NCBI GenBank assembly: GCA_034436215.1
Contig: DAOTVU010000060.1
Coordinates: 5,994-69,993, forward strand
DNA length: 64,000 bases
Reading direction: 5' to 3'
Source of the DNA: Dehalococcoidia bacterium
Lineage (GTDB): Bacteria > Chloroflexota > Dehalococcoidia > GIF9 > UBA5629
The notes under the pieces were generated by a model. The model saw only the letters and a list, made by a program, of their open reading frames with translations. It was not told the origin of the DNA and ran no database searches. The position numbers and the translations under genes were made by a program. Shown piece after piece: positions 1 to 58,589 of the stretch. How positions within the stretch are numbered: the stretch's first letter is position 1; every line of letters starts with the position of its first letter.

Positions 1-334
1 CACCGATAAGTATCAATCCCGTGGCAAGGTCATGTAACCGGCCAAGCAGCAGTAGAGCCAGCAGCCAGCATAAAAAGGGTGCAAAAATGAAGTTAAGACC
101 GAGTCCCAAAATAAACGCTCGCCAATCACGAATTGCCATAGCAATGCCCCTTATAACGACAGTAAAGCCCATGGCCCCAATCATGATGACAATCAGCGGA
201 GTATTAAACTGCCTGATAAAAATACCCGGAGCAGGTGATATCAATCCTGTTATTATACCTATGCCAAGGGCACATAAAATTAAATAAGCGTAATTCTTAC
301 GTACAAATTCAGCATAAGCCTGCAACCATTTCAT
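1..334 (-). CDS. BART-superfamily (ACR3/BASS-like) transporter, 5' fragment (N-terminal ~111 aa; rest lies beyond window start)
   Basis: Minus-strand translation from ATG at 334: MKWLQAYAEFVRKNYAYLILCALGIGIITGLISPAPGIFIRQF... hydrophobic multi-TM. ATGA overlap with stop of the next gene. Absent from the ORF track because the ORF is open at the window edge. Confidence 0.45.
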   Translation of the reverse strand, partial: MKWLQAYAEFVRKNYAYLILCALGIGIITGLISPAPGIFIRQFNTPLIVIMIGAMGFTVVIRGIAMAIRDWRAFILGLGLNFIFAPFLCWLLALLLLGRLHDLATGLILIG

Positions 335-1083
335 TTCAACAAATCCCAGACCATTTTTATGGCAATTAAATACAGCACAATCCCTAAAGTCAGTTTAACC
401 TGAGATGGGTTCAGCTTTTTCCTCATTAAATAAGCTCCCAGAAGCGCACCACCTATAGAACCGACGACGCAGAGAGCTAACAGGTAGATATCTACATTCC
501 CCGTGCTTACATGACTTAGAAACCCGGCCAGTGAAGAAAATATCACTATAAAAGCCGTAGTAGCCACCGCTTTCCTGGTATCAATCCCCAGCAAGACCAG
601 TGCCGGCGCAATGATATTTCCTCCACCCACTCCCAGAAGACCGCCCAGAAAACCCGCCAGAGAACCAACGCCCGCACCGAAAGCAATTTCTTTATTAGGG
701 CTTGCTTCAATATGTCTGTCATGTGGTCTGTAAAACAACATCATTGTCGCTGCAAAAACAATAAAGCCTGTTAATATCCATTTAAGCAGACTCTCGGGCA
801 GGCGGCCGGCGGTAACAGCTCCCAGGGGAGACAGTACGGTAGCAGCGACCAGCACAGGTACAGCCGTTCTGAAAAGGATCAGCTTTGCCCGGCTAAAGCT
901 GATTGAGGCAAAAGCCATGGATACGGAATTCAGTAAAAGCGCAGTCGACATGGCAGTCAGCAACGGAATACCCATGGCGATAAAAACGGGGATAAGAATG
1001 AAGGCCGCTCCTACGCCGGATATCGTCAGCACCGTGGTAAAAGCAAAGGTTATCAGAGCCGCAATAAGATACAGTTGGTTCAT
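331..1083 (-). CDS. TauE/SafE family anion (sulfite) exporter, membrane protein
   Basis: 250 aa, ~8 TM, Gly-rich repeats (GLLGVGGG) typical of DUF81/TauE. Confidence 0.7.
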   Translation of the reverse strand: MNQLYLIAALITFAFTTVLTISGVGAAFILIPVFIAMGIPLLTAMSTALLLNSVSMAFASISFSRAKLILFRTAVPVLVAATVLSPLGAVTAGRLPESLLKWILTGFIVFAATMMLFYRPHDRHIEASPNKEIAFGAGVGSLAGFLGGLLGVGGGNIIAPALVLLGIDTRKAVATTAFIVIFSSLAGFLSHVSTGNVDIYLLALCVVGSIGGALLGAYLMRKKLNPSQVKLTLGIVLYLIAIKMVWDLLK

Positions 1084-1169: not shown

Positions 1170-1817
1170 TCAACTGTAAATCGCCTCTACCCATATCAGG
1201 TTATTAGCACTGACGACTTCCTTTAATTGTTCTACCATCGGACGTATGTCCTCCATCTGTGTGGATGTAATGTAAAAGCTCATATATCCGGGAGTCTTTT
1301 CCATAAGGCCTTTGATGGTGGGAATATCAAGCTTCAATTCAACTATATCGAACGGTTTATCCTTAATCAAATCCTCTAATTTAAGTAAAAAGCGCTGCTC
1401 TCCGAACACGCCAGAGATACGTATCTGTGCCCGCGTGGCCCTTGATGTGATTTTTTCTTCTGCTATTTTACGATCCTCAGCTACCTCAGATTTAGTGCGT
1501 TTAGCCGCCGCCTCTTTATGCACCTCCTTGAAAATCTTGTACTCCCGTTCTATTTTCCAGACAGTATCCCTCGAAGGAAAGGCAATGGCCTGAGTAGGAC
1601 AGACCATGGCACAGGTAGTGCAACCTACCATGCAGTTATAAGGACGCTCTACAGTTGCTTTATGCCTGTTATCAGGATTAATCTCAAAAACTTCTCGGCC
1701 GCAGGTTACATAGCATAATTCACACCCGATGCATTTCTCAGCATCGATTGTCGGAAACCATGGGATATTCTTCCTGGGCACACCGTGCCATAATGTCTGG
1801 CTTAAATCCTTAGCCAT
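1170..1817 (-). CDS. 2x[4Fe-4S] ferredoxin-domain protein with C-terminal NIL-like domain
   Basis: Two CxxCxxCxxxCP motifs (CIGCELCYVTCGREV; CMVGCTTCAMVCP). C-terminal ~110 aa extension. Confidence 0.7.
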   Translation of the reverse strand: MAKDLSQTLWHGVPRKNIPWFPTIDAEKCIGCELCYVTCGREVFEINPDNRHKATVERPYNCMVGCTTCAMVCPTQAIAFPSRDTVWKIEREYKIFKEVHKEAAAKRTKSEVAEDRKIAEEKITSRATRAQIRISGVFGEQRFLLKLEDLIKDKPFDIVELKLDIPTIKGLMEKTPGYMSFYITSTQMEDIRPMVEQLKEVVSANNLIWVEAIYS

Positions 1818-1926: not shown

Positions 1927-2964
1927 TCATTTTAATTTTCTTATCTTCCTCAGCATCAATGAAACGGGATGCCGCTTCTTTCTTTTTTCTAACTCATTTT
2001 CGACAAATTCTTGCTCTTCTTTCCTGATAAATCTGTAGAATAAACTCAACATCGGCATTTGAACGATAAAACAAAAAATCACAGCCAGAACGATGGGGCC
2101 GGAAAAAGTTGAAAGTGCCAGGGCGATGCCAATGGAGAGGTTTTTGGAAGTGGTACCATAAACAATGGGCATCTGATTGTCGTAGGAATTAATAAACAGG
2201 CCGGAAAAAAAGAGCGTGACCAGGAACGTAATCAGATAGTAACTTAATGAAAGCAGTAATCCCCAAATGATTAACTGGGGCTGGCTGATAATCGCTCCGA
2301 CTTTCAGGGAGACGGAGATAAAAACGACGAGCAGGGCACACATGCTGGAAATCGTGGATAAGGAAGGTTTCCATGATTTAATCTGTTTTGAGGAATATTT
2401 TTTCTTTAATAATAGCTGGGTAATAAAACCGGCAATTAAAGGCAGAAATATATAAAGCAGGAGATTTTGAATTAACAGCCATTGAGAAAACTTAACGGAG
2501 TTTGGAAGAAGCAAGGCCAGAGTTAAAGGTATGGTTAAAAGAGCTAAAATAAAAGTCGCAGTCTGTAAAATCATCGCTAATTCAATATTGGCATCCAGGA
2601 GTCCCGTCCAGGAGACGATCATTCCACCGGGTGGCATTGTAGCTGCCAGGATTAAGCCGCTCTTCAAATAATCGTATTTTTCTGGAAAAGCAAAATTTAT
2701 CAAATAAGCAACCAGCGGCGCCAAAACTAAAATCGCTAATATCCCCCAAACAAGTTCCCTCCTATATTTACGAATATCGACCAGTTCTTTAAAGTCTATG
2801 GCAATAACCATTACAAAAATCATTAAAAACAGAACGGGCACAATAAGAACCTGCAATAAAGAAGCTATATGAGGGAACAGCCAGCCGAAAAGAAAACCAA
2901 CTAATATCGAAGTTAAAACCAGTGAAAATAAATTCTTCCTAAAAAATTGATTGATTTTTTCCAT
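1927..2964 (-). CDS. BART-superfamily transporter (bile acid:Na+ symporter / ACR3-like fold)
   Basis: 345 aa, ~10 TM, two-repeat architecture. Lacks the conserved Cys of genuine ACR3 arsenite carriers, so substrate is left open. Confidence 0.55.
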   Translation of the reverse strand: MEKINQFFRKNLFSLVLTSILVGFLFGWLFPHIASLLQVLIVPVLFLMIFVMVIAIDFKELVDIRKYRRELVWGILAILVLAPLVAYLINFAFPEKYDYLKSGLILAATMPPGGMIVSWTGLLDANIELAMILQTATFILALLTIPLTLALLLPNSVKFSQWLLIQNLLLYIFLPLIAGFITQLLLKKKYSSKQIKSWKPSLSTISSMCALLVVFISVSLKVGAIISQPQLIIWGLLLSLSYYLITFLVTLFFSGLFINSYDNQMPIVYGTTSKNLSIGIALALSTFSGPIVLAVIFCFIVQMPMLSLFYRFIRKEEQEFVENELEKRKKRHPVSLMLRKIRKLK

Positions 2965-3014: not shown

Positions 3015-3452
3015 TCACTCTTTCAGGCTTTTCAAGATTAATTCCTTAGCCTTCCTCACATCGTCAGGATCTATATATTCCATCAGATCTTTTATTCCTT
3101 CACCTATATCTTCGTGAAGCGCTTTTTTCTTCATGCCGATATCTTTTACCAGCACAATACTTTTAGTCGGTTTCATGCCGGACTGTTCCACCGTCTTCCT
3201 CGCGCACTCAAACAGGCAGCCATCCACAGTGATGATTTTCTTGGCCGCCCTTGTCTTGCCGAGCACCGGCTTTACTCCCAGCGGCAGTGCTCCCAGACAG
3301 CCGATTGCCACCTTCTCCAGCCCTAACTCTTTGACGGCATCCAGACAGGCCAGCGCACTGGTAATACCGGTATTCGACAGACCACCAAAACAGGAAAAAA
3401 TGATGTTCTCATGTGTCTTCATTCCTTCTTCCCAGTGTTTTTCTTCTGCCAT
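3015..3452 (-). CDS. DGC-domain (putative Zn-binding) protein
   Basis: 145 aa with motif VDGCLFECARK and several conserved Cys. Confidence 0.5.
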   Translation of the reverse strand: MAEEKHWEEGMKTHENIIFSCFGGLSNTGITSALACLDAVKELGLEKVAIGCLGALPLGVKPVLGKTRAAKKIITVDGCLFECARKTVEQSGMKPTKSIVLVKDIGMKKKALHEDIGEGIKDLMEYIDPDDVRKAKELILKSLKE

Positions 3453-3525: not shown

Positions 3526-5253
3526 TCACTTCAAATATGCATTGAGTATCTTCTCCAGCTCTGCTGCGCTATTGAATTGCAGGTTATTATTTAAAACTAT
3601 CCCCGACTTATCCAGCAGATAATATGTCGGGACAAACAAAACGTTATATGCGGCCCCGACTTTATTTTCGGCATCGTATAATACCGGAAATCTAAAATTC
3701 TCAGCGGTTACATAATTTTTGATGGCTGTTTCTCTGCCCGCTCCATGAATTGTAACTATGGCTACTTTATCCGTCGGGATCTTATCATACACTTCCTGAA
3801 CCATCGGCATTTTCATCTGGCAGGTGGGGCAGGATATGTTCCAGAAGGCCAACAGCGTAATTTTCCCGCGGAGCTGGTTTGAGTTAAAAGGCTCGCCATT
3901 AATGGTTTTAAGTTGAAACGAGGGTGCACGCTGGGTAACTGCAGTTCCGGCGGCCAGTGAAAAACTGCCCGTATATTCCGCCATCAGCCTGTGCCCGTAG
4001 GGGTCTATGGATTTAATCCTGAACTTATATATACCGTTTTCCGCCAGGCCGGTAAGCGAAACGGCATGATTTGTTGAAGCTTCAATTCCGGTGATAGACT
4101 GGAATTTATTTTCTCCTTCCAGCCAGTAATCCACCTCTGCCGTGGTAGGACGGTCAGTTTCCCATACGATAGTAACGGCATCGCCCGTCATATCCTTAAT
4201 GGCAGGATTTATGATAACAGGCGGCTTTTCCAGCGTGGTAAACGAATACTGCGGAGATATGCCTTTACCGCCTTTTCTGTCACTGAACAGTATCTGAAAA
4301 TAATATGTGGTGGCCTCATTAAGATTATCAATCACGATGCTGTGCACGGTGCGGGTTGTGTTCTCCGACCAGGTACCCGCTATTGCCCCATTTCTGTCAT
4401 ATACCAGTATATCTACGATTTCGGGATTTGCTGTGGTAAACGTAATACGGGCATTGCTGGAACCGATATCTACAACCGTAACGTTATCGGTTACAGCAAA
4501 GCCGTTCGTCTGCCCGCTGTTTTTTGCTTCTTTGAAGTTGATCGTGCCGGTCACTGTCAGGACTGCGAGAACAATACCCGCAATCCCGATCAAATAGCCC
4601 AGTGAGGCCCACAGGTTGTTACGATATAAGCGCGATAACTTCCATAAAGTGGTCGACCACAGGGAATTTACCCTGCTCTTTACCGGGCATGTCAGCGGTC
4701 GGCCGGCACTTAATCGAAGCGTTACGAAATCGATTAATTGTATGGCAGGCCACCGGCTGGCCAGAAACCTTCCCGGTTGCATGAATATAACGATTAAAGC
4801 CAGCAGCATCAGGACTATGTCAATGATCAGCGATTGCAGAGGTGTAAGGTGGCCGAATATCATCTCCCAGATACCGAAACAACCTGCACAGGTAGCATAA
4901 CTCCCGGCAATAATCGCCCATACATTGGTAGCGGCGAAAATCGCTGAGAGCGGTATACAGAGCAGTGCGGACAGACGCGGTACAAAACCCAGCAACAGTA
5001 GAATGCCCAGCAACAGTTCAGCAATGGGGAAGATATACGGCACAACTATTTTAACAATGAAATGCAGCAACCACGGCGACAGAAGAAATTCCGGCAACAC
5101 GGCATAAATAAAATTCATTACCTGAGACGATGTCTCCAATTCTCCGAGCAGTTTACCGGTCCCTGAGGCAAGAAAAGTCAGCCCGATCAACAGGCCTGCT
5201 ATCAGGCTGGAATATTCACGCACTGGTAACAATTTTGTGCTGTCAAGACGCAT
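3526..5253 (-). CDS. Fusion protein: MauE/DoxX-like membrane domain + FN3/Ig-like domain + TlpA-like thioredoxin (CPTC)
   Basis: N-terminal ~230 aa multi-TM, central beta-rich domains, C-terminal AFWNISCPTCQMKMPMV thioredoxin motif. Confidence 0.65.
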   Translation of the reverse strand: MRLDSTKLLPVREYSSLIAGLLIGLTFLASGTGKLLGELETSSQVMNFIYAVLPEFLLSPWLLHFIVKIVVPYIFPIAELLLGILLLLGFVPRLSALLCIPLSAIFAATNVWAIIAGSYATCAGCFGIWEMIFGHLTPLQSLIIDIVLMLLALIVIFMQPGRFLASRWPAIQLIDFVTLRLSAGRPLTCPVKSRVNSLWSTTLWKLSRLYRNNLWASLGYLIGIAGIVLAVLTVTGTINFKEAKNSGQTNGFAVTDNVTVVDIGSSNARITFTTANPEIVDILVYDRNGAIAGTWSENTTRTVHSIVIDNLNEATTYYFQILFSDRKGGKGISPQYSFTTLEKPPVIINPAIKDMTGDAVTIVWETDRPTTAEVDYWLEGENKFQSITGIEASTNHAVSLTGLAENGIYKFRIKSIDPYGHRLMAEYTGSFSLAAGTAVTQRAPSFQLKTINGEPFNSNQLRGKITLLAFWNISCPTCQMKMPMVQEVYDKIPTDKVAIVTIHGAGRETAIKNYVTAENFRFPVLYDAENKVGAAYNVLFVPTYYLLDKSGIVLNNNLQFNSAAELEKILNAYLK

Positions 5254-5271
5254 ATTATTCCTCCCTGCACA

Positions 5272-5964
5272 TCAATATCGGGGGCAACAAAATACATCGA
5301 AATCGACCTGACCTTTCGCTTCATTTCGCATTCCATCTTCAGCCATAACTGTAATCAGATAATGGCCGACATTCGGCGGGGCGGTGAAAAAAGCCGTATC
5401 GCATGAACCCGAATCCAGTGCTGGTGACCCGGGGTCGGCCTTTAAAAATCCACCGCTCTTAGACCATCGATATTTTATTTCTCCGCCTGCCGCATTATCT
5501 ACGATGCAGTGTATGCGTGTTCTGGTGCCGACTTTCACCGTACGTTTGATCAGTACATTTTCGCCTGATGACATGGAAAGCTTTAAATCGACATTGGGGG
5601 TTGTTGTGCCATCCGCATTGGTCAGCACCCGGATGCCAACCGATTTCGTGGCCACTCCGCCTTTTCCATCGCTGACCCTGACTTCTACAGTATAATCTCC
5701 CATCGTATCCGGCGTTATCCAGACTATGTTCGATCCACCGCCGTGAAACTGGCCACTATCCGCCGCCCACTCATATTTCAAAGGGTCGCCATCGGGATCC
5801 TCTGAGATACAGATCAGCTCAAGATCCTGTCGGGCCATGGCGTCGTGAGCGCAGACTAACTCCTTTATTACCGGAGCCGCATTGTGCGGTGCGGAAATTT
5901 TCGGCGGTTCTGCACAGCCGGCACATAGGGCAATCACAAAAGCAGCAACCATCAGCCGTCTCAT
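5272..5964 (-). CDS. PKD-domain lipoprotein ending in vicinal Cys pair (…DVFCCPRY)
   Basis: Signal/lipobox LCAGCA. PKD-like motif DPDGDPLKYEWAADSG. Paralog of 7105..7812. Confidence 0.55.
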   Translation of the reverse strand: MRRLMVAAFVIALCAGCAEPPKISAPHNAAPVIKELVCAHDAMARQDLELICISEDPDGDPLKYEWAADSGQFHGGGSNIVWITPDTMGDYTVEVRVSDGKGGVATKSVGIRVLTNADGTTTPNVDLKLSMSSGENVLIKRTVKVGTRTRIHCIVDNAAGGEIKYRWSKSGGFLKADPGSPALDSGSCDTAFFTAPPNVGHYLITVMAEDGMRNEAKGQVDFDVFCCPRY

Positions 5965-6590
5965 CGCTGAGATATCCCCACCTTTTCCAGTATCTTCAAT
6001 ATACTGTCCTTGTCTATATATCCGAGATTGCGTGCGACCTCCTTACCATCCGCAGTAAAAAATATCTGAGTCGGTATTGCCCTGATACCATAACGGGTAA
6101 CCAGCTTCTCCTGTTCGGGGTCATATACTTCCACAATTACCACATTCAACCGGTCTTTATATTCAACTGCCAGTTCTTCAAGAATGGGCTTCATAGCCTT
6201 GCAGGGGATGCACGTGCGCCAGCCGAAGTCGGCCAGCGTGGGTCTGCCGTTTCCCAGAACGCTATCCAGAGGTATCCTGGTTATATCAGCTCCGTCGCCA
6301 CTTTTATTTTGTCCGGACGTATCGACGCCGGTCTGTGTCCTGTCCATCGAGTTGCTACCGCCATCATTTTTATAAGGTATGTCGGCAACCGGCGTAGCAG
6401 CCGTCGATGTATTTGAACAGCCCAGCACGGCTGCAATCAGAATAAACAATGAAAATGTCAATATCGCTTTAACCCGAATAAATCCCCGCAATGCGCCTCC
6501 GGCAGACCTCATATTTATAGAAACTTTGCTTCCATCTTCACACATTTTTAACTTCTCCGGTTTAGCCGATATTTTCCAGCCGTTTTCCAC
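5961..6590 (-). CDS. Membrane-anchored thioredoxin-family protein (CIPC active site)
   Basis: N-terminal TM, Ser/Thr/Gly linker, WRTCIPCKAMKP...AIPTQIFF thioredoxin fold signature. Confidence 0.7.
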   Translation of the reverse strand: MENGWKISAKPEKLKMCEDGSKVSINMRSAGGALRGFIRVKAILTFSLFILIAAVLGCSNTSTAATPVADIPYKNDGGSNSMDRTQTGVDTSGQNKSGDGADITRIPLDSVLGNGRPTLADFGWRTCIPCKAMKPILEELAVEYKDRLNVVIVEVYDPEQEKLVTRYGIRAIPTQIFFTADGKEVARNLGYIDKDSILKILEKVGISQR

Positions 6591-6622
6591 GGCCCATTTT
6601 CGCCCTCAATTCCGTCCATATT

Positions 6623-7108
6623 TCAATAATCGCCCTCCAATGCTCTGGTGATAACCTGCTTCAAAGCCTGTTTGAACTTTGCCTTATCGGTAAAGTACTC
6701 CCAAACCTCATCAGCGAAAACGATACGCTGGGACTGACCATGAACTATGGTCATACCCAGACAAAATGGGGCAGGATCATATTTTTTGACAATGGCGGCA
6801 TTCTGAGCCACATCAGAGGCTACAAACAGGAACTTAAGTTTGCCCGATTCGATCTCATTTTTAAACTCCTGCGTCACGGTTTCTCTGATATTTTCACCCG
6901 CCTCGGCCAGACATTCACAGGGAGGCGGATTACTCTTATAAAAATAGACGACCTCGACGCTATCCGGAGGTCCGGAAGGCTTAGCAGTCCCCGAAGTACT
7001 GGCCACCGGCCTGCCGCATGACGTTAGTATTACCAAAACAACGATGGAAACAATTAATATAAATTTAGGATTAGTGGTATATTTCATAGGTCTCCTTTTT
7101 AAACTCAA
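6623..7108 (-). CDS. Lipoprotein with CxC motif (paralog of 8625..9221), possible thioredoxin-like/ArsD-like fold
   Basis: LTSCG lipobox. VEVVYFYKSNPPPCEC...SGKLKF shared with 8625..9221 (VDVIYFHPNQRCVTCLC...SGKLTY). Confidence 0.45.
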   Translation of the reverse strand: MSLKRRPMKYTTNPKFILIVSIVVLVILTSCGRPVASTSGTAKPSGPPDSVEVVYFYKSNPPPCECLAEAGENIRETVTQEFKNEIESGKLKFLFVASDVAQNAAIVKKYDPAPFCLGMTIVHGQSQRIVFADEVWEYFTDKAKFKQALKQVITRALEGDY

Positions 7109-7812
7109 TTACCGCAACAGAAAACATGTATGTTAACCTGCCCTCTGGCCTGCTTTCCGCTGCCATCTTTTACCACGACATCAACTGTATAATCACCGAT
7201 GCTACCGGGTGCTATCCATCCGATAGTATCTGCCCTTCCTTCCTGTAAATCTCTGGCTTTTATCTTCCCGCCGGTGGACGACCACGTATATGTCAGCCGG
7301 TCACCACCACCGTTTTCCACCAGACAGACTATATTGGTTGTTGTCCAGATACGGGCGCGCTGATTACCGAGAACAACCGGCTGGTCATTACCCAGTTTCA
7401 GTTTTAATTCTATAGTCGGCGTTGCAGTACCGTCAGCATTGGTAACCACTCTTATTTCAATAGTGCGATTAGCAACACCGCCTTTCCCATCCATCACCCT
7501 GACAGACACGGGATAGGTGCCCATTTTCCCAGGCGGAACCCACACAATACTTGCCCCATCACCCCGGATATTGCCTGCATCTGCTGTCCATGTATACATA
7601 AGATTATCGCCATCCGGATCACTGGCCACGCACTGTATTTCTACGTCCGAATTGGAGAATACATCTTTAGGATAAATCACGTCTTCAATTACAGGTGGCC
7701 TATTGGCCTGCATGGACACATGGCCTGTTCCCGAACACGAAAGCAACGACCCAAACAGTGTGGCTATCGTTATCAGCAGAAAAACCGTATATATTACTCC
7801 TGTTTGCCTCAA
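7105..7812 (-). CDS. PKD-domain lipoprotein ending in vicinal Cys pair (…HVFCCGN)
   Basis: DPDGDNLMYTWTADAG...MDGKGGVANRTIEIRVVTNADGTATP, near-identical blocks to 5272..5964. ATGA overlap with upstream gene. Confidence 0.55.
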   Translation of the reverse strand: MRQTGVIYTVFLLITIATLFGSLLSCSGTGHVSMQANRPPVIEDVIYPKDVFSNSDVEIQCVASDPDGDNLMYTWTADAGNIRGDGASIVWVPPGKMGTYPVSVRVMDGKGGVANRTIEIRVVTNADGTATPTIELKLKLGNDQPVVLGNQRARIWTTTNIVCLVENGGGDRLTYTWSSTGGKIKARDLQEGRADTIGWIAPGSIGDYTVDVVVKDGSGKQARGQVNIHVFCCGN

Positions 7813-7835
7813 GATATAATCATTCCTCCATCAAA

Positions 7836-8555
7836 TTAACTCTGGTTCAAGCCACTGAGAATCAGGGGAACCATGTAATAAATGCCGACGCCAATAAACA
7901 CCAGGGCAATGACAATACGCAGAATTTTTTCACTTCGTGTAACAGCATCAATCCATTTCGATAAACTGGCCACGCCAAGAGATATAAGCATTCCAAATAA
8001 TAACACAGGCAACCCGGTCCCGATAGCGAAAAAGGCCGGCAGAATCACGCCCTCGGTTGTTCTCAGAGCCAGTGGAATCAAAACGGCGAAAAACAGAACC
8101 GCGCTGTACGGACAGAAGGCCAGGGCAAAAATCGCACCCAGGGGCAATCCACCGATCATACCCAGGTCGGCAACTTTTCCTCCCGCCGATGAGAGGACAT
8201 TCCCACTGCTCCCGAAGGAAATCCGGTCTATAAAAAGCATTAACAGCCCGACGACAACTAGAAACGGGCCCAGTGCCTTCTCACCCACCTCCTGCACAAA
8301 TATCGAAATACCGGGAATGCTGAGGCCGAGGTAGATAATCAGCGCCCCCAGAACCGTATAGGTTAGCATGCGCCCTGCGGTATAAAGCGAAGCCGTCAGC
8401 ACTGCATACTTGCGATCGGTCAATTTGCGCCCCACATAGGCCAGGGCCGCAATGTTGGTGGCCATTGTACACGGGCCGATGGTCGCCATCAGCCCCAGGA
8501 AAAAGGCCGATATGATGGGGATATTGTTACCCGAGGTAAGCGCAGATAAATCCAT
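7836..8555 (-). CDS. CcdA/DsbD-family thiol:disulfide interchange membrane protein
   Basis: 239 aa, 6-8 TM, conserved Cys in TM1 (IGPCTMATN) typical of the DsbD transmembrane family. Confidence 0.6.
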   Translation of the reverse strand: MDLSALTSGNNIPIISAFFLGLMATIGPCTMATNIAALAYVGRKLTDRKYAVLTASLYTAGRMLTYTVLGALIIYLGLSIPGISIFVQEVGEKALGPFLVVVGLLMLFIDRISFGSSGNVLSSAGGKVADLGMIGGLPLGAIFALAFCPYSAVLFFAVLIPLALRTTEGVILPAFFAIGTGLPVLLFGMLISLGVASLSKWIDAVTRSEKILRIVIALVFIGVGIYYMVPLILSGLNQS

Positions 8556-8624
8556 TACATCTCCTATTTAATAATATTAATAATACATATTGCTTGAGCT
8601 TTATGCGCAACGTTCATTTTCTCA

Positions 8625-9221
8625 TCACTGTATTTTAAGCAGGCTCTGGTCAATAGCATCCTTAACCTTGAGCTGAAAGCCGCGAGGGTTTGTTTCACAT
8701 TTCCAGTTCCATATACCCTGAATATCCTTTATATTATCGACGCCCCCGATTATGGTGTTCACAAACAGCTGTGAACCCACGGCACGATATTTTCTGACGA
8801 TGTCAGCATTTTCCTGTTTCTGGATATTCAGAACCCTGTAGGTCAATTTCCCGCTGGCCATGGCATCCTGATAATATTTTTCTATTACCGTGTTGATATT
8901 TTGTTCAAAACACAAACAGGTCACACATCGCTGATTAGGGTGAAAATAAATGACATCCACACGGTTTATTTTATCCGAATTGGCCGGCGGTTGATGTTTA
9001 ACAGAATCTGCTGCCGCTGCGGCATCCTGATCGGATGAACTCTGACCTGCCGCTTGATTTCCAGCAGGGGGCTGGTCAGAATTCTTCTCTCCCGCCTGCG
9101 GTTGGCCTGCTGCCGGCACCTGAGGTTGTACACCGGATGATGCCGGGCTACAGCTCACCGCAACCGGCACAAAAATACAACTCACGATTATCAATAATAT
9201 CCCGATAAGCGTCGGCTTCAA
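8625..9221 (-). CDS. Lipoprotein with CxxCxC motif and Q/A/P-rich linker (paralog of 6623..7108)
   Basis: VAVSCS lipobox, low-complexity linker, conserved C-terminal domain shared with 6623..7108. Confidence 0.45.
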   Translation of the reverse strand: MKPTLIGILLIIVSCIFVPVAVSCSPASSGVQPQVPAAGQPQAGEKNSDQPPAGNQAAGQSSSDQDAAAAADSVKHQPPANSDKINRVDVIYFHPNQRCVTCLCFEQNINTVIEKYYQDAMASGKLTYRVLNIQKQENADIVRKYRAVGSQLFVNTIIGGVDNIKDIQGIWNWKCETNPRGFQLKVKDAIDQSLLKIQ

Positions 9222-9332
9222 AATATTCGCTCTCTCCCCATAGCAAATCGAGAATTCATTTCATGTGGATCATCCACGACAGGTTTAAATATAAACTGTA
9301 AATTTTCGCGGATAACCCACAAATTTATCCAT

Positions 9333-9599
9333 TTACCGGCTTTTGGCTTCTTCCTCATAAGCCATGGCGTTCATGATTAACTGTTCAACCTCGGCTCTGG
9401 TCGGAACCTTGCCGCTGAGTACCACCTTATCGTTAATAACCAAACCGGGGGTCATAAGTATAGGGTATTGCATAATCTTCCGCATATCCCTGACCTCCTC
9501 GACGGTAATATCAAGCTGCAAGGTGGATACCACTTCCTTAACAATTTTTTCCAGTGCCACACATTTGGCACATCCGGGACCGAGAACTTTGATATGCAT
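9333..9599 (-). CDS. Thioredoxin-like 'redox-active disulfide protein 2'
   Basis: 88 aa, MHIKVLGPGCAKC N-terminal CxxC, classic small thioredoxin-fold family. Confidence 0.75.
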   Translation of the reverse strand: MHIKVLGPGCAKCVALEKIVKEVVSTLQLDITVEEVRDMRKIMQYPILMTPGLVINDKVVLSGKVPTRAEVEQLIMNAMAYEEEAKSR

Positions 9600-9616
9600 G
9601 CATTTACCTCCGATTG

Positions 9617-10657
9617 CTATTTAGCGATAAATCCGAATATATATCCCGTAATAGTCGCCATGATACAAACCAGTGCTACATAAACCAGGGTCTTTTTCCA
9701 TCCCATTATTTTGCCCAGTGCCAGCATACTGGGCAAGGATAGCGCCGGACCCGCCAGCAGAAGGGCCAGCGCCGGCCCCTTACCCATTCCCATATCCAGA
9801 AAGGCCTTAACTATGGGAACCTCGGTGAGTGTGGCAAAATACATCAATGCACCGAAAATCGATGCCACGAAATTACCGAGTATGGTGTTACCTCCCACAA
9901 TGGATGCCACCACCTGCTGGGGCACAATTGCCTTTAATATGCCGGCGATAAACACACCTATCAGCAGCCACGGCACAATCAAAAGGAAAAACCGCCATGT
10001 TTCCTTCATCCACAGTTTGAACTCATCCAGGGTAAACCAGCGCCACAGGATAATGACCAGACCTGCAAGCAGAATACCCAGAACAAGCCACAGCTTGGAA
10101 GAGGCGGTGATAAGGATGCCCACCAGCAAGGCAAAATATATGATCTCCTGCCACCAGGGTTTTTCCGGGTCGGCAGCGGCCAGAGCCTCGAAACGGCCAT
10201 CATCGATTCTTTTCTTTTCTCCTCTGGCAAAAATATACGCCATAATTAGCCCGATGATTACCGAAAAAGAAACCGCTCCGATTACACGCGCCAGGCCGAT
10301 ATCCCAGCCCAGAAGTCTGGCCGAATATACAATGGCCAGCACATTAATAGCAGGCCCTGAATACAGAAACGCTATGGCGGGCCCCAATCCTGCTCCGGCC
10401 ATATATATACCGCTGAACAAGGGCAACACCGTGCAGGAACAAACAGCCAGGATTGTCCCTGAGACCGCACCAACTCCGTAGGCTAAGAATTTATTGGCAC
10501 CGGGTCCGAAATATTTTAGAACCGATGCCTGTGAGACGAACACCGATATGGCTCCCGCAATAAACAATGCCGGGACCAGACAGGTGAGTACATGAAGCGA
10601 TAGATAATCCAGAAGCGTATCCCAGCCCGATTTAAGCAACATTAAAATAAAATCCAT
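9617..10657 (-). CDS. Two-repeat permease (DUF318 family) commonly paired with ArsR and redox-active disulfide protein 2
   Basis: 346 aa, ~10 TM, internal duplication, SGTILAVCSCTVLPLF motif. Confidence 0.7.
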   Translation of the reverse strand: MDFILMLLKSGWDTLLDYLSLHVLTCLVPALFIAGAISVFVSQASVLKYFGPGANKFLAYGVGAVSGTILAVCSCTVLPLFSGIYMAGAGLGPAIAFLYSGPAINVLAIVYSARLLGWDIGLARVIGAVSFSVIIGLIMAYIFARGEKKRIDDGRFEALAAADPEKPWWQEIIYFALLVGILITASSKLWLVLGILLAGLVIILWRWFTLDEFKLWMKETWRFFLLIVPWLLIGVFIAGILKAIVPQQVVASIVGGNTILGNFVASIFGALMYFATLTEVPIVKAFLDMGMGKGPALALLLAGPALSLPSMLALGKIMGWKKTLVYVALVCIMATITGYIFGFIAK

Positions 10658-10700
10658 TTCATCTACCTTTTTGCTAATTTTCCGTAATCATGCACCGGTT

Positions 10701-11084
10701 TCAGGAAGAATGGACACATTCCGGATAAACACGGCATACAGTTGAGAGTTTCTCCAGATCGGACTTCGACAGCTCATTGACCATCAGTCGTTTCCTGACG
10801 GACTTTAAAAGATCGACGGTTGCTTCATCCATATTATCCCAATCGATCAGGTAAAATGAGAACAGTCCGCGATGTCTGACCTTTAATATCCCTGCATTGT
10901 GCATAATTCCGAGATGGTGAGAGACCCTGGGTTGCGATATCCCCAGCACCTGGATAATCTCACACACACAGCACTCACGCTCAAACAGCATATTGAGCAT
11001 CCTCAATCTCGTCTCATCGGCAAGCGCCTTCAATAATTTGACCGTGTCCTGCATATTTTTACTCCCGTAGAATCTATATAACAA
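10701..11084 (-). CDS. ArsR/SmtB-family metalloregulator (HTH)
   Basis: LADETRLRMLNMLFERECCVCEI...ISQPRVSHHL helix-turn-helix with metal-site Cys pair. Confidence 0.8.
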   Translation of the reverse strand: MLYRFYGSKNMQDTVKLLKALADETRLRMLNMLFERECCVCEIIQVLGISQPRVSHHLGIMHNAGILKVRHRGLFSFYLIDWDNMDEATVDLLKSVRKRLMVNELSKSDLEKLSTVCRVYPECVHSS

Positions 11085-11103
11085 TATTATTATATAGTTA
11101 TAT
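11076..11103. promoter_or_regulatory. Inverted repeat ATATAAC-N14-GTTATAT immediately upstream of arsR start (candidate ArsR operator)
   Basis: Read directly from sequence. AT-rich, overlaps the expected promoter of the minus-strand operon. Confidence 0.3.
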
Positions 11104-11448
11104 TTAGTTATAATGATATCGCTCGGATTTTTAGATTGTCAAATGGCAGCTATTTTGATAAATATACGGCCTACTATAGAAATGATGATTAAATGGCAGA
11201 TAAAATTATATGCAGACCAACACCGAAATGAAATCCGCAAAAAAGAACGGTTGCTGGATTTTCAATTTTTATCTGCCCCACATATTTGAATTGCATGGTT
11301 GCGCATTATTGCAATTATCTATGAGCTTTGATATCATTATATTTAGGTATTTAATATCCGTTCAATTTCAAATTAAGGGGGTAACTGCGATAGACGGGAT
11401 TAAATTAGAGAGAAATTCGCAACTGGAAAATATTTAAGGAGGTTTTAT

Positions 11449-11904
11449 ATGTTTGCCAAGGTACTCTACCCAACCGATTTTTCCGATGTATCCACCAAAG
11501 CTCTGGAGTATGTTAAAAAACTGAAGGAAGCCGGAACTACCGATGTTGTTGTCGCCCACATAATCGATAAAAGGGAAACTGTTTGCGTGGGACCATGTGC
11601 AGCGTGGGGAAATATGACAGTGAGCGAAGCTGAAGCAAACTTGAGAAAGACACTGGAAACAGACGCACAAAAAAAATTGCGCTCCATCGAGGCCAAATTA
11701 AGAAAATCCGGCTTCGAGGTCAAGATACGATTGGAAACGGGCAGCCCCGTACAGGAGATTTTAAAGATCGAAGAGGAGGAGAAGGTTTCTGTCATCGTCA
11801 TTGGTTCTCACGGCAAGAGCAATATCAAAGAAGTTTTTCTTGGCTCAGTTTCAGAGAATGTTATCAGACACTGTAAGAAGCCCGTTCTGGTCGTAAAGAG
11901 ATAG
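11449..11904 (+). CDS. Universal stress protein UspA
   Basis: 151 aa. VIGSHGKSNIKEVFLGSVSENVIRHCKKPVLVV C-terminal ATP-binding motif. RBS AAGGAGG upstream. Confidence 0.8.
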   Translation: MFAKVLYPTDFSDVSTKALEYVKKLKEAGTTDVVVAHIIDKRETVCVGPCAAWGNMTVSEAEANLRKTLETDAQKKLRSIEAKLRKSGFEVKIRLETGSPVQEILKIEEEEKVSVIVIGSHGKSNIKEVFLGSVSENVIRHCKKPVLVVKR

Positions 11905-11912
11905 GCATTAAA

Positions 11913-12260
11913 ATGCATAAGCTGGTGAAAATATCCAAAGCCCTCTCCGATGAGACGAGAATCAGGATGCTTAAGTTATTACTGGATGAGGACATCTGCG
12001 CCTGTGAAATGAGAAAAATATTCCCTCTTTCACTCCCCCAGCTATCGAGAAATCTGAAAATGCTGATGGAGGCGGGCTTTTTAAAATGCTGGCGTGATGG
12101 AAAATGTTTGGTTTACATAGCGGACAGAGACAGCGCTGATGACTATTGCCGTACACTGATGGATTTACTATCAGCCTCATATAATAATTCTGAAACGGTA
12201 TTAAAAGACCGTATGAAATTAAAACAGGTAAAAGCAAACAAAGTAAGGGTATGTTGTTAA
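11913..12260 (+). CDS. ArsR-family transcriptional regulator
   Basis: LSDETRIRMLKLLLDEDICACEM...SLPQLSRNL HTH. Confidence 0.75.
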   Translation: MHKLVKISKALSDETRIRMLKLLLDEDICACEMRKIFPLSLPQLSRNLKMLMEAGFLKCWRDGKCLVYIADRDSADDYCRTLMDLLSASYNNSETVLKDRMKLKQVKANKVRVCC

Positions 12261-20424: not shown

Positions 20425-21696
20425 ATGGATTTTATAAAGCCTGCCATTGAAGAACTATCCCATCTCCGTGAAGACCCTCTCCTGGTTGAACAGGAACTCG
20501 ACGTCCGCCCAGATGTTGCCCTGGCGCTGGAAAAAGCCACCGGCATACGCTCGGGACGCGTGTACTGGCGGTCGCAGCATGAATATCTGTACGCTCTCGA
20601 GCTGGGAGATCTGGGCAGAGGAAGGCCATCAACAGCTACCGTGTACGGTTTCTGGGATCGTTATGAGCCCAGGCCGGTTGATAATGAGATCGATGCTGAC
20701 CTTCTGGAATTCATCTACTGGTTTGCCGGTATAACAGAAAGCATTAATCCGGATGATGTTAAACAGACGGTCAAATTCGCACAGATTCAGTCCACCCATC
20801 TGGATGGGACCTGGCCTGCTGGCTCTTTTATGCGCACACCCGATGAGCGTTTTGGCGATCTGCCGGGCTTCGATTATCAGCCGCGATATGTAGATGTCGA
20901 AGGGTTGCGCATGGCCTATTATGAGGCAGGTGAAGGCAATCCCATACTGTGTCTGCATGGCGAGCCTATGTGGGGATACCTCTACCGACGTATGATTCCG
21001 ATCCTTGCAAAAGCGGGACGCGTTATCGTCCCCGACCTTATCGGTTTCGGCCGCTCGGACAAACCGGTTGCGGAAAACGCTTACAGCTATAAATCGCACG
21101 TCCGCTGGATGAAGAAATTTCTCGATGCACTTAAACTTGACCGGATTACAGTTATCGGACAGGACTGGGGCGGCTCGATTGGTCTACGGTTGCTGGCCGC
21201 GTTACCCGGTATCTTCACACACGCAATCTGGATGAATACCGGCATCGCAGGAGGGCTGCCGTTCGGTCAGGCGTTTGCGACATGGAGGCGCTTTTCACAG
21301 GACCAGGTTTTCATGGATGTGCCCGCACTGGTAAAACTATCACTTCAGCGGAAATTAAGCGAGTCCGAGTATGCCGCCTACGGTGCTCCCTTCCCATCAA
21401 AAGAATACTGCAGGGGAGCACTCGTCTTTCCGCGCCTTGTACCCATACGCCCCGATCATCCCGGCACTTACGACAATCTGAAAGCCATCGAAATCCTCAG
21501 GAAACTTGATATCCCCGTGCTTTTGTTATGGGGAGATAAAGACGATATCACCAAACCCGGAGTATATTTTTTGAAATCGATCTTCAAAACAGCAAATGAA
21601 CCGATCGTAATTAAAGGCGCCGGCCATTTTATCCAGGAAGATGCCGGCGAGGAAGTCGCCGATCGCATAGTAGAATGGCTGAAGAACAACAGTTAG
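20425..21696 (+). CDS. Haloalkane dehalogenase-like hydrolase with extra ~150-aa N-terminal domain
   Basis: LCLHGEPMWGYLYRRMIPILAKAGRVIVPDLIGFGRSDKP is almost DhlA-identical block. IGQDWGGS nucleophile. N-terminal domain has no recognisable family. Confidence 0.75.
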   Translation: MDFIKPAIEELSHLREDPLLVEQELDVRPDVALALEKATGIRSGRVYWRSQHEYLYALELGDLGRGRPSTATVYGFWDRYEPRPVDNEIDADLLEFIYWFAGITESINPDDVKQTVKFAQIQSTHLDGTWPAGSFMRTPDERFGDLPGFDYQPRYVDVEGLRMAYYEAGEGNPILCLHGEPMWGYLYRRMIPILAKAGRVIVPDLIGFGRSDKPVAENAYSYKSHVRWMKKFLDALKLDRITVIGQDWGGSIGLRLLAALPGIFTHAIWMNTGIAGGLPFGQAFATWRRFSQDQVFMDVPALVKLSLQRKLSESEYAAYGAPFPSKEYCRGALVFPRLVPIRPDHPGTYDNLKAIEILRKLDIPVLLLWGDKDDITKPGVYFLKSIFKTANEPIVIKGAGHFIQEDAGEEVADRIVEWLKNNS

Positions 21697-23231
21697 ATCT
21701 AAATGAGCAGTTCAAATACGCGCTCCACTTGATGGAGGATACTGGAAAGAGCGTTTTCATCACGGGGCGCGCCGGCACCGGCAAATCAACCCTTTTAAAC
21801 TATTTCCGCCAAACCACAGGGAAAAAAGTGGTAATTCTGGCTCCCACGGGAGTTGCCGCCCTCAATGTACGGGGGCAAACAATCCATTCCTTCTTTCGAT
21901 TCAAGCCCGATATCACGCCGGAAAAGGTTAAAAAACTCCGCTTCGATAATGATAATAAAAATATCTATAAAAAGCTGGATACGATCGTTATCGATGAGAT
22001 CTCCATGGTACGGGCAGACCTGCTCGATTGTGTGGATAAATTCCTGCGATTGAACGGACCGATGTTTGATAGGCCATTCGGAGGTCTGCAGATGATTTTT
22101 ATCGGAGATCTTTATCAGCTACCCCCGGTTGTAACCGGTGCTGAAAAAAAGGCCTTCACGGGCATTTATGAGACGCCTTATTTCTACAGCGCCGCTGTAT
22201 TTAATGCCATGGAAGCCGAGTTTGTAGAGCTGGAAAAGGTTTACCGGCAACATGACGAAGCATTTATAGACCTGCTTAATTCCATCCGGAATAGATCCAT
22301 TACTGAGGAGGGACTAAATCTGCTAAACCAGAGATATATCCCGGACTTCAAACCTCGCCCGGGCGATTTTTACGTTTATCTTACCACTACCAATGCCCTT
22401 GCCGATGAGATCAATAACAAAGAGCTTGCAAAGCTGAAAGGCAAACCCCACACATTCACCGGCCTCATCGAGGGTGAGTTCGGCAACGAATACCTGCCGA
22501 CGCTGGTCGATCTCAATGTTAAACCGGGGTCGCAGGTCATGATGCTGAACAATGATGCCCGCGGGCGCTGGGTAAACGGGAGTATAGGAAAAATCACCCG
22601 CATAATCCAGACAAGAAATGAGGACCCGATTATCGTCGTTGACCTGAAAAACGGCGAAACTGTGGATGTTACACCCCACACATGGGAAGTATTCCGCTTT
22701 TTTGCCGAAGAAGGCGAGCTGCGCTCGGAGGTCATCGGGAGCTTTACGCAGTATCCTCTCACGCTTGCCTGGGCATTGACCATACACAAAGGGCAGGGCA
22801 AGACTTTCGACAGAGTGATTATCGATATCGGCAAGGGAACATTTGCCCACGGCCAGACATACGTGGCACTGAGCAGATGCACCACGCTAAATGGCATCGT
22901 GCTGAAACAACCAATCCTGAAAAAACATATATGGACGGATCGCAAAGTGGTAGATTTCCTGACGAAATATCAGTACAAAAAGGCAGACCAGGCCCTTTCT
23001 GTAAATGCTAAAGTCGAGATAATAGAGAATGCAATCAGAGATAAGAAATTGCTTGAGATAGTATATCTTAAGCCGAACGATGAAAAATCCATCAGAATTA
23101 TAAAACCCGAGTGGGTGGGCGATATGGAGTACGGGGGCAAGTGCTATCTGGGGATGCAGGCATTCTGCATGAAGCGTAATGAGGAGAGGGTCTTCCGGGT
23201 CGACAGGATATTGAAAATACGGGTAGTGTAA
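21675..23231 (+). CDS. Pif1-family SF1B helicase with C-terminal WYL domain
   Basis: Walker A GRAGTGKST, DEISMV, QLPPV motifs. C-terminus GKCYLGMQAFCMKRNEERVFRVDRI matches the WYL consensus (…WYL…R.FRLDRI). Confidence 0.75.
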   Translation: MAEEQQLDLNEQFKYALHLMEDTGKSVFITGRAGTGKSTLLNYFRQTTGKKVVILAPTGVAALNVRGQTIHSFFRFKPDITPEKVKKLRFDNDNKNIYKKLDTIVIDEISMVRADLLDCVDKFLRLNGPMFDRPFGGLQMIFIGDLYQLPPVVTGAEKKAFTGIYETPYFYSAAVFNAMEAEFVELEKVYRQHDEAFIDLLNSIRNRSITEEGLNLLNQRYIPDFKPRPGDFYVYLTTTNALADEINNKELAKLKGKPHTFTGLIEGEFGNEYLPTLVDLNVKPGSQVMMLNNDARGRWVNGSIGKITRIIQTRNEDPIIVVDLKNGETVDVTPHTWEVFRFFAEEGELRSEVIGSFTQYPLTLAWALTIHKGQGKTFDRVIIDIGKGTFAHGQTYVALSRCTTLNGIVLKQPILKKHIWTDRKVVDFLTKYQYKKADQALSVNAKVEIIENAIRDKKLLEIVYLKPNDEKSIRIIKPEWVGDMEYGGKCYLGMQAFCMKRNEERVFRVDRILKIRVV

Positions 23232-54158: not shown

Positions 54159-54334
54159 TGTATTTATTTATTTAATATTTGACATGTAAACAGATGCACG
54201 CCGAAAAATACCTCTGTCGGTTCACGACTTTCATTTGTGTACTTACTTTTTAATAATTTTCCCAATCACATAATCCCCGTACAAGTGGCAAACGTATCGT
54301 TATTGTGACCCGTATGGCTACCATTCCGTATCGG

Positions 54335-55461: not shown

Positions 55462-55509
55462 TACGCAGTTACATCCTCCTGTAATCCATTACGTTTATAA
55501 TTTTTACAT

Positions 55510-57606: not shown

Positions 57607-57723
57607 TTATTTTTCCCTTATATCAGCCGGCCGCCAGCGGTTTATTCACGTTCCTCATCATCTCTAAATCAATTCGACATTAAGACATAACTGCTAATAT
57701 CCCTTACATATAAAGGGCCTGTG

Positions 57724-58341: not shown

Positions 58342-58540
58342 TCTCCTTCTTAATAATACTTATTGATACTGCGACCGCCGATCGCCTGTTGACGTCGTTT
58401 TTATACTATCAGCACCCGATACTCATATAGATTTTCCCAGCCGAAATGGGTTGTAACAAGTATTACAAGGTTAAACATCATGAGCCAAACGGTTATCTTC
58501 CAGCCGGAAAATACGCCCTGTTTTCAACCGGCGGGCAGTT

Positions 58541-58578
58541 GGTAACGGGTGCTACCGGAACCGGCAGCACCCGTTACC
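58541..58578. other. Perfect 13-bp stem hairpin GGTAACGGGTGCT-N12-AGCACCCGTTACC between MCP stop and cheW start
   Basis: Seen in sequence. No adjacent T-run on the minus strand, so an attenuator/RNA-processing site is as likely as a terminator. Confidence 0.3.
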
Positions 58579-58589
58579 GGCACCTTCAC

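Follow-up and report, generated by a model that had tools for sequence, protein, structure and literature searches.

A putative ArsR-controlled operon combining ArsP and ArsE/F/G-family genes with Cys-Cys-tailed lipoproteins in an arsenic island of a Dehalococcoidia bacterium

The analyzed window is a 64,000-nucleotide stretch from the genome of an uncultured Dehalococcoidia bacterium (GenBank assembly GCA_034436215.1, contig DAOTVU010000060.1, positions 5,994 to 69,993 of the forward strand). At positions 3526-11084 it contains a run of ten co-directional minus-strand genes, identified from the list of open reading frames (ORFs) with Pfam and NCBIfam assignments. The same ten genes were obtained by independent gene calling on the 182.7-kb source contig (ENA ERZ27247220 k141_609985). 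Read 5' to 3' on the minus strand, they encode the repressor ArsR, an ArsP_1 permease, ArsE, a first ArsF (ArsF1), ArsG, a first lipoprotein with PKD domains and a C-terminal cysteine pair (PKD-CC-1), a second ArsF (ArsF2), a thioredoxin lipoprotein, a second PKD-CC lipoprotein (PKD-CC-2), and a MauE-FN3-TlpA fusion. The original prediction, made from the sequence alone, had given the same strand, gene order, and domain assignments, and all of these are confirmed by the ORFs, Pfam, NCBIfam, and the independent gene calls. It counted eleven genes, but listed ten, and ten were found. By family assignment, the ArsR, ArsP, and ArsE/F/G genes form an already named core. The PKD-CC lipoproteins, the PKD-thioredoxin fusions of related loci, the MauE-FN3-TlpA fusion, and the topology argument for a relay formed by ArsE, ArsF, and ArsG (ArsEFG) are new.

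Only one junction in this run is a true overlap, the ATGA at 5961-5964, where the start of the PKD-CC-2 gene overlaps the stop of the preceding thioredoxin lipoprotein gene; the remaining gaps are 17-111 nt. Thus, the earlier description of the genes as tightly packed or overlapping holds for this junction, but the apparent overlap at 7105-7108 is an artefact of the longest ORF, since arsF2 starts at ATG 7087 behind the ribosome-binding site AAGGAG. The start of arsR is most likely ATG 11054, preceded by the ribosome-binding site GGGAG and giving a protein of 117 aa, and position 11084 is therefore only the end of the maximal ORF. Lipoboxes were found in the sequences of all five secreted proteins: ArsF1, ArsF2, PKD-CC-1, PKD-CC-2, and the thioredoxin lipoprotein. 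No intergenic terminators were found within the operon in a terminator scan, whose counts were no higher than in shuffled sequence, and the operon limits are therefore set by spacing and synteny only. The gene run is one conserved unit, and its arrangement is far beyond chance, because the order recurs, with 45-84% protein identity, in many independent Dehalococcoidia metagenome-assembled genomes (MAGs).

The arsR1 gene (10701-11054, minus strand) encodes an ArsR/SmtB repressor of 117 aa (HTH_5, 63.6 bits; NF033788, 84.5 bits against a cut-off of 55). The protein has a CCVC motif in its DNA-binding region, all three cysteines of which are kept in 9 of 9 homologues; we take this three-cysteine CCxC site to fit an S3 metalloid site. 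ArsR1 also matches the NCBIfam models for TsoR, BigR, and CmtR, in each case below the cut-off. The top promoter-like site within the first 12 kb, TTGACA-18 nt-TATCAT, lies ahead of arsR1 at 11142-11113 (minus strand, 11 of 12 matches). Directly downstream of it is an AT-rich palindromic block, a putative ArsR operator at 11074-11103. The core of the palindrome, CTATATAA-N8-TTATATAG, is located at 11074-11097, and the inverted repeat proposed earlier at 11076-11103 does exist, as a nested register of the same block. Among related loci, designated here by L-numbers (L001 is the source contig, and the others are PKD-CC-bearing loci in Dehalococcoidia MAGs), a TTGACA box was found at the equivalent position ahead of the orthologous arsR in L003, L005, L013, and L014. 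In all four loci, a matching palindrome, ACTATATAA-N8-TTATATAGT, lies between this box and arsR. The palindrome is a credible candidate for the operator because it is kept while the ArsR proteins of these loci are only 56-59% identical to ArsR1. A second ArsR-family regulator of 115 aa (11913-12260, plus strand) is encoded within a divergent Usp-ArsR2-DegV-TauE cluster facing the operon; it has a CAC motif and a C-terminal vicinal cysteine pair (VCC-COOH), so that a C-terminal CC is a theme common to this regulator and the PKD lipoproteins.

The second gene of the operon (9617-10657, minus strand) encodes an ArsP_1 (DUF318) permease (PF03773, 275 bits) with a CSC motif, and its Cys73-x-Cys75 pair, predicted to lie in a transmembrane helix, is kept in 7 of 7 full-length homologues. 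The characterised ArsP reportedly requires such a cysteine pair. The arsE-like gene (9333-9599, minus strand) encodes an 88-aa protein with the motif GPGCAKC, matching Thioredoxin_3 (93.4 bits) and the MTH895/ArsE family TIGR00412 (97.8 bits against a cut-off of 62). Hydrophobic segments and a signal sequence are absent from ArsE, which is thus predicted to be cytoplasmic; its CxxC (CAKC) is kept in 10 of 10 homologues. The arsG-like gene (7836-8555, minus strand) encodes a membrane protein of the DsbD_2/CcdA superfamily (PF13386, 72.6 bits; ArsG equivalog NF040495, 247.5 bits against a cut-off of 200) with about six hydrophobic segments. Its sole cysteines, Cys29 (GPC) and Cys148 (FCP), are predicted to lie in separate transmembrane helices, and both are kept in 14 of 14 full-length homologues.

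Two ArsF-like lipoproteins are encoded in the operon. ArsF1 (8625-9221, minus strand) consists of a Pro/Gln-rich linker and a thioredoxin-fold domain with YFHPNQRCVTCLC, and scores 87 bits against a cut-off of 60 with NF040494, the nitrophenyl compound nitroreductase subunit ArsF family. A sequence search of the PDB with ArsF gave no match. The C-terminal domain of ArsF1 was modelled by AlphaFold2 with a pLDDT of 97.6, and all listed Foldseek matches of this domain in the PDB have the thioredoxin fold, most of them being thioredoxins and protein disulfide isomerase domains. In the model, CVTC opens helix 1, where the active site of a thioredoxin fold is canonically found. ArsF2 (6623-7087, minus strand, 154 aa) scores 49.2 bits with the same family, below the cut-off. 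Both lipoproteins had been described as CxC proteins; this holds for ArsF2 (PCEC), but the motif of ArsF1 is CxxCxC (CVTCLC). The two proteins share 23% identity and represent separate, individually conserved subfamilies. Members of the ArsF2 subfamily are located just upstream of ArsG in L012-L014, and their CxC is kept in 9 of 9 homologues. In a profile search, the whole ArsF family comprised at least 3,406 clusters at 50% identity. The wider motif in the top 150 clusters is YFHxxxRCxxC, the third cysteine being lineage-specific and the ArsF2 type having CxC instead. A hydrophobic N-terminal signal or anchor was found in 122 of 129 assessable family representatives. The name ArsF is already present on NCBI records of related MAGs, and the combination of Thioredoxin_3 protein, lipoprotein, and DsbD_2 protein is thus the named ArsE/ArsF/ArsG set, not, as had been proposed, a functionally unresolved trio of ArsR, permease, and thioredoxin to which a CcdA protein and CxC lipoproteins were added.

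PKD-CC-1 (7105-7812, minus strand; Pfam PKD/Big_9) has a lipobox, two Ig-like (PKD) domains, and the C-terminus VFCCGN-COOH, and PKD-CC-2 (5272-5964, minus strand; Pfam PKD) ends in FCCPRY. In the AlphaFold2 model of PKD-CC-1, a signal helix and a linker are followed by two beta-sandwich domains, and the Cys-Cys pair stands exposed directly after the last strand. The family comprises about 100 clusters at 90% identity, nearly all of about 234 aa and named only from Dehalococcoidia/Chloroflexi MAGs. The lipobox cysteine is invariant in the family and the CC tail is nearly so. Among the tail variants are FCCGN, FCCPRN/Y, CCGKELTED, YCCHE, and SCCAK, and the vicinal pair is kept in all of them; the FCCPRN/Y subtype was also found in L010, L012-L014, L016, L022, and L023. 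A C-terminal sorting signal was considered for these tails and rejected, as neither a hydrophobic helix nor a basic tail follows the CC motif. A recent internal duplication of the lipoprotein module was rejected as well, and the original prediction overstated the case in calling the module internally duplicated: the paralogs are old and divergent (23% identity for the ArsF pair and 40% for PKD-CC-1 and PKD-CC-2), and orthologues specific to each type were found in further genomes.

The thioredoxin gene between arsF2 and the PKD-CC-2 gene (5961-6590, minus strand, with the gene-caller start at 6545; PF00085, 50.2 bits) encodes a protein with the active site CIPC, the CxxC of which is kept in 8 of 8 homologues. 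Earlier read as a membrane thioredoxin, it is a lipoprotein by its lipobox, VLG-C. In four related operons, its position is occupied by a gene for a PKD-thioredoxin fusion lipoprotein, consisting of one PKD/Ig domain and a CIPC thioredoxin domain (L012, ~6275-6970; L013, ~11140-11829; L014, ~11116-11805; L022, 9117-9821). Because the two domains are fused in these four operons, which is Rosetta-stone evidence, PKD and thioredoxin domains presumably work together.

The last gene (3526-5253, minus strand, 575 aa) encodes a fusion of a MauE/DoxX-like domain (CAGC), an extra transmembrane helix, two FN3 domains, and a TlpA/ResA-like domain (CPTC), with Pfam scores of 39.5 bits for MauE (cut-off 27), 31.5 bits for fn3, and 71.8 bits for AhpC-TSA. 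Hydropathy and charge distribution suggest that the four MauE helices carry CAGC on an outer loop, that a basic loop in the cytoplasm leads to a fifth helix, and that the FN3-FN3-TlpA part is external. All four cysteines of the fusion are kept in L014, and the CAGC pair is kept in L013, where the match stops at the contig edge. A standalone MauE/DoxX-like gene was found in the operon position of the fusion in L022. The top PDB sequence matches of the TlpA-like domain are ResA and StoA, both of which are CcdA clients. MauE/MauD and VKOR-thioredoxin fusions likewise combine, within a single polypeptide, a polytopic domain with a predicted outer-loop CxxC, one additional transmembrane helix, and a thioredoxin-like domain outside. 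In contrast to MauE/MauD, the protein described here has two FN3 spacer domains and an ars context, and scores far below the cut-off with the MauD equivalog model of NCBIfam (41.8 bits against 188.6).

Conservation of the operon was analyzed in a locus scan with one genome per species and a narrow PKD-CC alignment, a sample biased towards close relatives. The scan gave 15 loci, all from the Dehalococcoidia/Chloroflexota lineage and, according to the record titles, from peat, lake, and other sediments. With the window proteins mapped onto these loci and with further look-ups, a conserved unit ArsR-ArsP-ArsE-(DGC)-ArsF-ArsG-PKD-CC was found, often followed by a thioredoxin lipoprotein gene, more PKD-CC genes, and a MauE-type gene. 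A near-complete long form of the operon is present in L013 and L014. The PKD-CC gene adjoins the gene for ArsG, ArsF, or ArsE in 18 of 23 distinct loci and lies immediately downstream of that for ArsG in most loci; four of the 23 are non-ars loci, and L009 is counted with neither class. All redox cysteines are kept across the ars-linked loci. Together with the fusions in four operons, this linkage bears out the expectation that the lipoprotein families would be tied to thioredoxin/CcdA-type genes elsewhere.

A thiophilic substrate, as the original prediction proposed, is plausible and can be narrowed to arsenicals, because genes for ACR3, ArsM, and an ArsC-like LMWP follow the operon, and ArsM, ACR3-like, ArsD, and ArsA genes surround the homologous operon in L023. 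At the window's own locus, the same-strand gene series continues past window position 1 (L001, 17479-20708) with an SBF transporter, the ArsC-like LMWP, ACR3, and ArsM. The ACR3 gene (equivalog, 446.5 bits against a cut-off of 282.8) and the ArsM gene (342 bits against 263) are located about 1-2.9 kb beyond the window edge. By these family assignments, the operon belongs to an arsenic island. The homologous operon of L024 itself contains an SBF/ACR3-like gene.

Side by side with these genes, further DsbD-type proteins were observed. In L010 (4158-6301) and L023 (3572-4547 and 1594-3525), a divergent mini-operon of ArsR, a second DsbD_2 paralog, and SBF/ACR3 (with or without ArsM) faces the ArsP operon. 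In L012, ArsR and SBF-like genes are located opposite the operon, with no DsbD_2 match between them. L023 contains a further cluster, in which an ArsR gene and one unassigned gene are followed by genes for a DsbD protein, a CARDB protein, ArsD, and ArsA. A linkage of DsbD-type proteins with ars genes is thus a recurrent feature of this lineage.

An alternative would be a general envelope thiol-redox or soft-metal system for Cu, Hg, Cd, Sb, or reactive sulfur species, with the arsenic genes as another part of a metal-resistance island. Regulators of the ArsR/SmtB family sense many effectors, and the sub-threshold matches of ArsR1 to TsoR, BigR, and CmtR agree with such breadth. The same can be said of the permease, whose nearest NCBIfam models, both below their thresholds, are SaoE (122.6 bits against 325) and the Cu/Zn exporter SO_0444 (103.8 against 300), as well as of the TauE/SafE exporters flanking the operon and of the existence of PKD-CC paralogs outside ars loci. 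However, the ACR3 equivalog, ArsM, and ArsD/ArsA accompany the operon in several independent genomes, the SBF/ACR3-like gene of L024 lies within it, and no CopA, MerA, or CadA-type determinant for Cu, Hg, or Cd was seen among the called genes of the source contig and the looked-up loci. The CCxC site of ArsR1, if it is the metalloid site that we take it to be, also speaks for arsenicals, and we consider a general system of this kind unlikely. Cytochrome c maturation, the usual task of CcdA and ResA, was rejected, given the predicted ArsR control and the absence of cytochrome and Ccs genes from all of the loci.

ArsE, ArsF, and ArsG look like a transmembrane reductant relay of the CcdA type, a reading based on the fold, the cysteines, and the predicted topology. 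Cytoplasmic ArsE, through its CAKC, would reduce the cysteine pair that ArsG holds within the membrane, and ArsG would reduce the outward-facing thioredoxin-fold lipoprotein ArsF, whose acceptor motif is CxxC in the first subfamily and CxC in the second. Further acceptors may be the thioredoxin lipoprotein and the TlpA domain of the MauE fusion. The known relays of this kind (thioredoxin to CcdA to ResA/StoA/CcsX, and thioredoxin to DsbD to DsbC/DsbE/DsbG) similarly comprise a CxxC donor in the cytoplasm, a membrane protein of the DsbD superfamily in which two transmembrane helices carry one cysteine each, and extracytoplasmic thioredoxin-fold CxxC acceptors, represented here among others by the ResA/StoA-like domain. 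Unlike them, the system described here is under putative ArsR regulation in an arsenic island and has a dedicated, cis-encoded donor, an 88-aa protein of the MTH895 type. Its acceptors include the YFHxxxRCxxC or CxC family, its ArsG has no sequence match to solved CcdA, and its probable clients are Ig-domain lipoproteins with Cys-Cys tails instead of cytochromes or spore proteins.

The families of the three proteins, Thioredoxin_3/ArsE, ArsF, and DsbD_2/ArsG, as well as their order and their ars locus, are shared with the ArsEFG set of Shewanella putrefaciens 200 (Chen, Zhang & Rosen, 2019, Environ Sci Technol 53:6182, in the citing passage of PMC9144182). It is from this work that the NCBIfam names of the three families derive. 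In full-text literature, searches for ArsEFG, ArsEF, and ArsG retrieved citations only, and searches for the Pfam names gave no match. The Dehalococcoidia operon differs from the Shewanella set in having two divergent ArsF paralogs, both lipoproteins. It also has ArsP, the PKD-CC lipoproteins, the thioredoxin lipoprotein, and the MauE-FN3-TlpA fusion, which are not known to be part of the described ArsEFG.

Taken literally, the family names would mean that ArsE and ArsF together carry out the nitroreduction of trivalent roxarsone or nitarsone and that ArsG pumps out the amino products, the extra lipoproteins being unrelated passengers. ArsE, ArsF1, and ArsG do score above the NCBIfam cut-offs and keep the E-F-G gene order, and this function is the one attributed to Chen, Zhang & Rosen (2019) where PMC9144182 cites them. 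Several features of the proteins fit such an assignment poorly, however. ArsF is a lipoprotein here and has a signal or anchor in nearly all assessable family representatives, while ArsE has neither; the two would therefore be placed on opposite sides of the membrane, which is a poor fit to a soluble two-subunit enzyme. ArsF is also a plain thioredoxin fold with CxxC, without a flavin or metal-cofactor domain, and its family comprises at least 3,406 clusters. Moreover, the related loci come from peat and sediments, habitats in which selection by synthetic nitroaromatic arsenicals is unlikely. Nor are the PKD-CC, thioredoxin, and MauE genes passengers, because they are conserved parts of the unit and in some loci are even fused. 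The topology thus favours a transmembrane thiol relay over a nitroreductase with a pump, and we regard the literal assignment as quite improbable in this operon.

In the relay reading, the path would be extended by the two-Ig-domain lipoproteins with C-terminal Cys-Cys, the thioredoxin lipoprotein or lipoproteins, and the MauE/DoxX-FN3-TlpA fusion, and the Cys-Cys tails would be clients or partners of the relay. Vicinal dithiols are classic ligands of trivalent arsenicals, as in ArsD Cys12/Cys13 and in the binding of phenylarsine oxide, and MerA is known to hand over its soft metal by means of a C-terminal Cys-Cys tail. Such vicinal-cysteine chemistry suits Hg(II), As(III), and R-As(III). As in MerA and ArsD, the adjacent cysteines of the PKD-CC proteins are located on an exposed terminal segment near redox-active CxxC proteins. 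There is no homology to either protein, and the tail belongs here to an extracytoplasmic Ig-domain lipoprotein, as a putative binding site. On the outer side of the membrane, the tails may capture trivalent arsenicals, which would then be passed on by thiol exchange among the thioredoxin-fold proteins. The captured species could be As(III) and organo-As(III), including methyl-As(III), that come from outside or have freshly been exported by ArsP or ACR3, and the system would act alongside the ArsP and ACR3 exporters and ArsM. By keeping the surface dithiols reduced, the relay would shield surface proteins and limit re-entry. The analysis itself shows the gene content and order with their conservation, the folds, the conserved cysteines, the predicted topology, the conserved putative operator, and the arsenic genes nearby; which way electrons flow, whether the CC tail binds arsenicals, what induces the operon, and what the cell gains from it are inferred.

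PKD-CC genes were also found outside ars loci. In four MAGs (L018-L021), proteins with 41-45% identity and a CC tail identical in kind are encoded as a tandem PKD-PKD pair beside a CoA ligase gene (for example, L018, 8242-10593), with a PAC2-family gene next in 3 of the 4 MAGs. No ars, thioredoxin, or MauE genes were seen beside these four copies. One MAG, JAPLHK01, holds both kinds, the ars-linked L011 and the non-ars L021. Since this distant clade has a separate conserved context without ars genes, the PKD-CC proteins are best described, on sequence grounds, as a lineage-specific family of surface lipoproteins with an ars-recruited clade, not as an arsenic-only invention.

These data could also mean that the PKD-CC proteins are structural, surface- or S-layer-associated lipoproteins whose terminal cysteines serve for disulfides or covalent anchoring. 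The thioredoxin, TlpA, and MauE proteins would then be a Dsb-like maturation system, demand for which is raised by arsenic stress. The lineage-wide distribution of the family, its housekeeping-type clade outside ars loci, and the MAG with both kinds are in line with this. Foldseek searches with the PKD-CC model retrieved only generic tandem-Ig surface proteins, adhesins, and S-layer proteins, a result in line with a structural role and otherwise uninformative on function. The combination of MauE and thioredoxin domains also recalls the disulfide-forming MauE/MauD and VKOR-thioredoxin proteins. On the other side, the ars-linked clade is repeatedly placed directly after ArsG under the ArsR promoter, and the maturation machinery is not generally required, because the non-ars copies do without thioredoxin and MauE genes. 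A purely structural role is, in our judgement, very unlikely for the ars-linked proteins.

Weighing these readings, we favour, at about an even chance of being right, an ArsR-repressed arsenical-resistance operon in which ArsP and an ArsE/F/G relay are extended by surface CC lipoproteins handling trivalent arsenicals outside the membrane. Several points tell against it. Stoichiometric capture on a surface protein is, alone, a weak strategy of detoxification, and the CC tail is not intrinsically arsenic-specific, because the non-ars clade carries the same tail in four MAGs. The permease matches the ArsP family at the Pfam level only, its nearest NCBIfam models being the sub-threshold SaoE and Cu/Zn exporter models. 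The MauE/DoxX domain may be oxidising or reducing. A sequence search of the PDB with ArsG retrieved only noise and no solved CcdA or DsbD, and the DsbD/LysE superfamily includes true transporters, so the two ArsG cysteines could equally form an As(III) transport site. Finally, the 2019 assignment by Chen, Zhang, and Rosen reportedly makes ArsEFG a nitroreductase with an efflux permease.

Of the original prediction as a whole, the conserved, cysteine-based, extracytoplasmic system stands, but its core had been missed, being the named ArsP/ArsEFG set in an arsenic island. The system had also been called periplasmic, which is doubtful for Dehalococcoidia; the outer face of the cytoplasmic membrane is a safer location.

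The trio of ArsR, ArsP, and a small thioredoxin provides a further comparison. ArsP is a methylarsenite exporter associated with ArsM in anaerobes (PMC11653729), and ArsP of Campylobacter jejuni is described, in the part of the same source that cites it, as a methylarsenite efflux permease. The three families, their order ArsR-ArsP-Trx_3, and the presence of ArsM in the same island are shared with the operon described here. In contrast to that trio, the small thioredoxin is read here as the donor of an ArsG relay and not as a partner of the permease, and the permease is assigned to ArsP at the Pfam level.

Known arsenic detoxification is cytoplasmic and consists of reduction, methylation, efflux, and chaperoning by ArsD/ArsA. 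If the favoured reading is true, a surface thiol layer would be a new compartment for such defence in anaerobes that abound in sediments and peat and are arsenic methylators as well. A bolder form of the claim is tentative, and we lean against it while holding it possible: ArsEFG of Dehalococcoidia, and possibly throughout the more than 3,400 ArsF clusters, would be a dedicated CcdA-type relay, not a nitroreductase with a pump, and in this lineage it would power the first extracytoplasmic chaperone or shield against arsenic that is based on thiols. Databases currently list thousands of proteins under the names "nitrophenyl compound nitroreductase subunit ArsF" or "aminobenzylarsenical efflux permease ArsG". 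A CcdA-type relay agrees with the fold and topology of these proteins, and the annotation misleads if the relay reading is right. The PKD-CC proteins form a compact family that is specific to this lineage and uncharacterised; they are easy to express and have an obvious two-cysteine site.

Further genes of the island are located 3' of the operon on the same strand. The first (3015-3452, minus strand; PF08859, 57.6 bits) encodes a cytoplasmic DGC-domain protein with five conserved cysteines. DGC orthologues were found 3' of the operon in L005 and L014, and DGC paralogs between ArsE and ArsF in L003, L014, L022, and L023; the protein is probably a cytoplasmic component of the same unit. It is followed by a gene for an SBF/ACR3-like transporter (1927-2964, minus strand; PF01758, 82.7 bits), whose resemblance to ACR3 is only weak (61.9 bits against a cut-off of 282.8). 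A TauE/SafE-family exporter is encoded at 331-1083 (minus strand), and L014 has an orthologue of it downstream of the operon. The gene that separates the SBF and TauE genes (1170-1817, minus strand) is a candidate member of the island and encodes a 2x[4Fe-4S] ferredoxin-domain protein, whose C-terminal ~130 aa gave no family match in Pfam or NCBIfam.

Several other genes in the window are located away from the island. A PIF1-like helicase with a C-terminal WYL domain is encoded at 21675-23231 (plus strand), and a DnaE gene is located at 24840-27965. Two ORFs of 602 aa (34312-36120, minus strand) and 523 aa (36766-38337, minus strand), for which no Pfam match was found at 1e-6, adjoin a gene for a T2SSE-type secretion or pilus ATPase (38288-40066). 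A chemotaxis cluster at ~52050-61298 includes genes for two MCPs and CheA.

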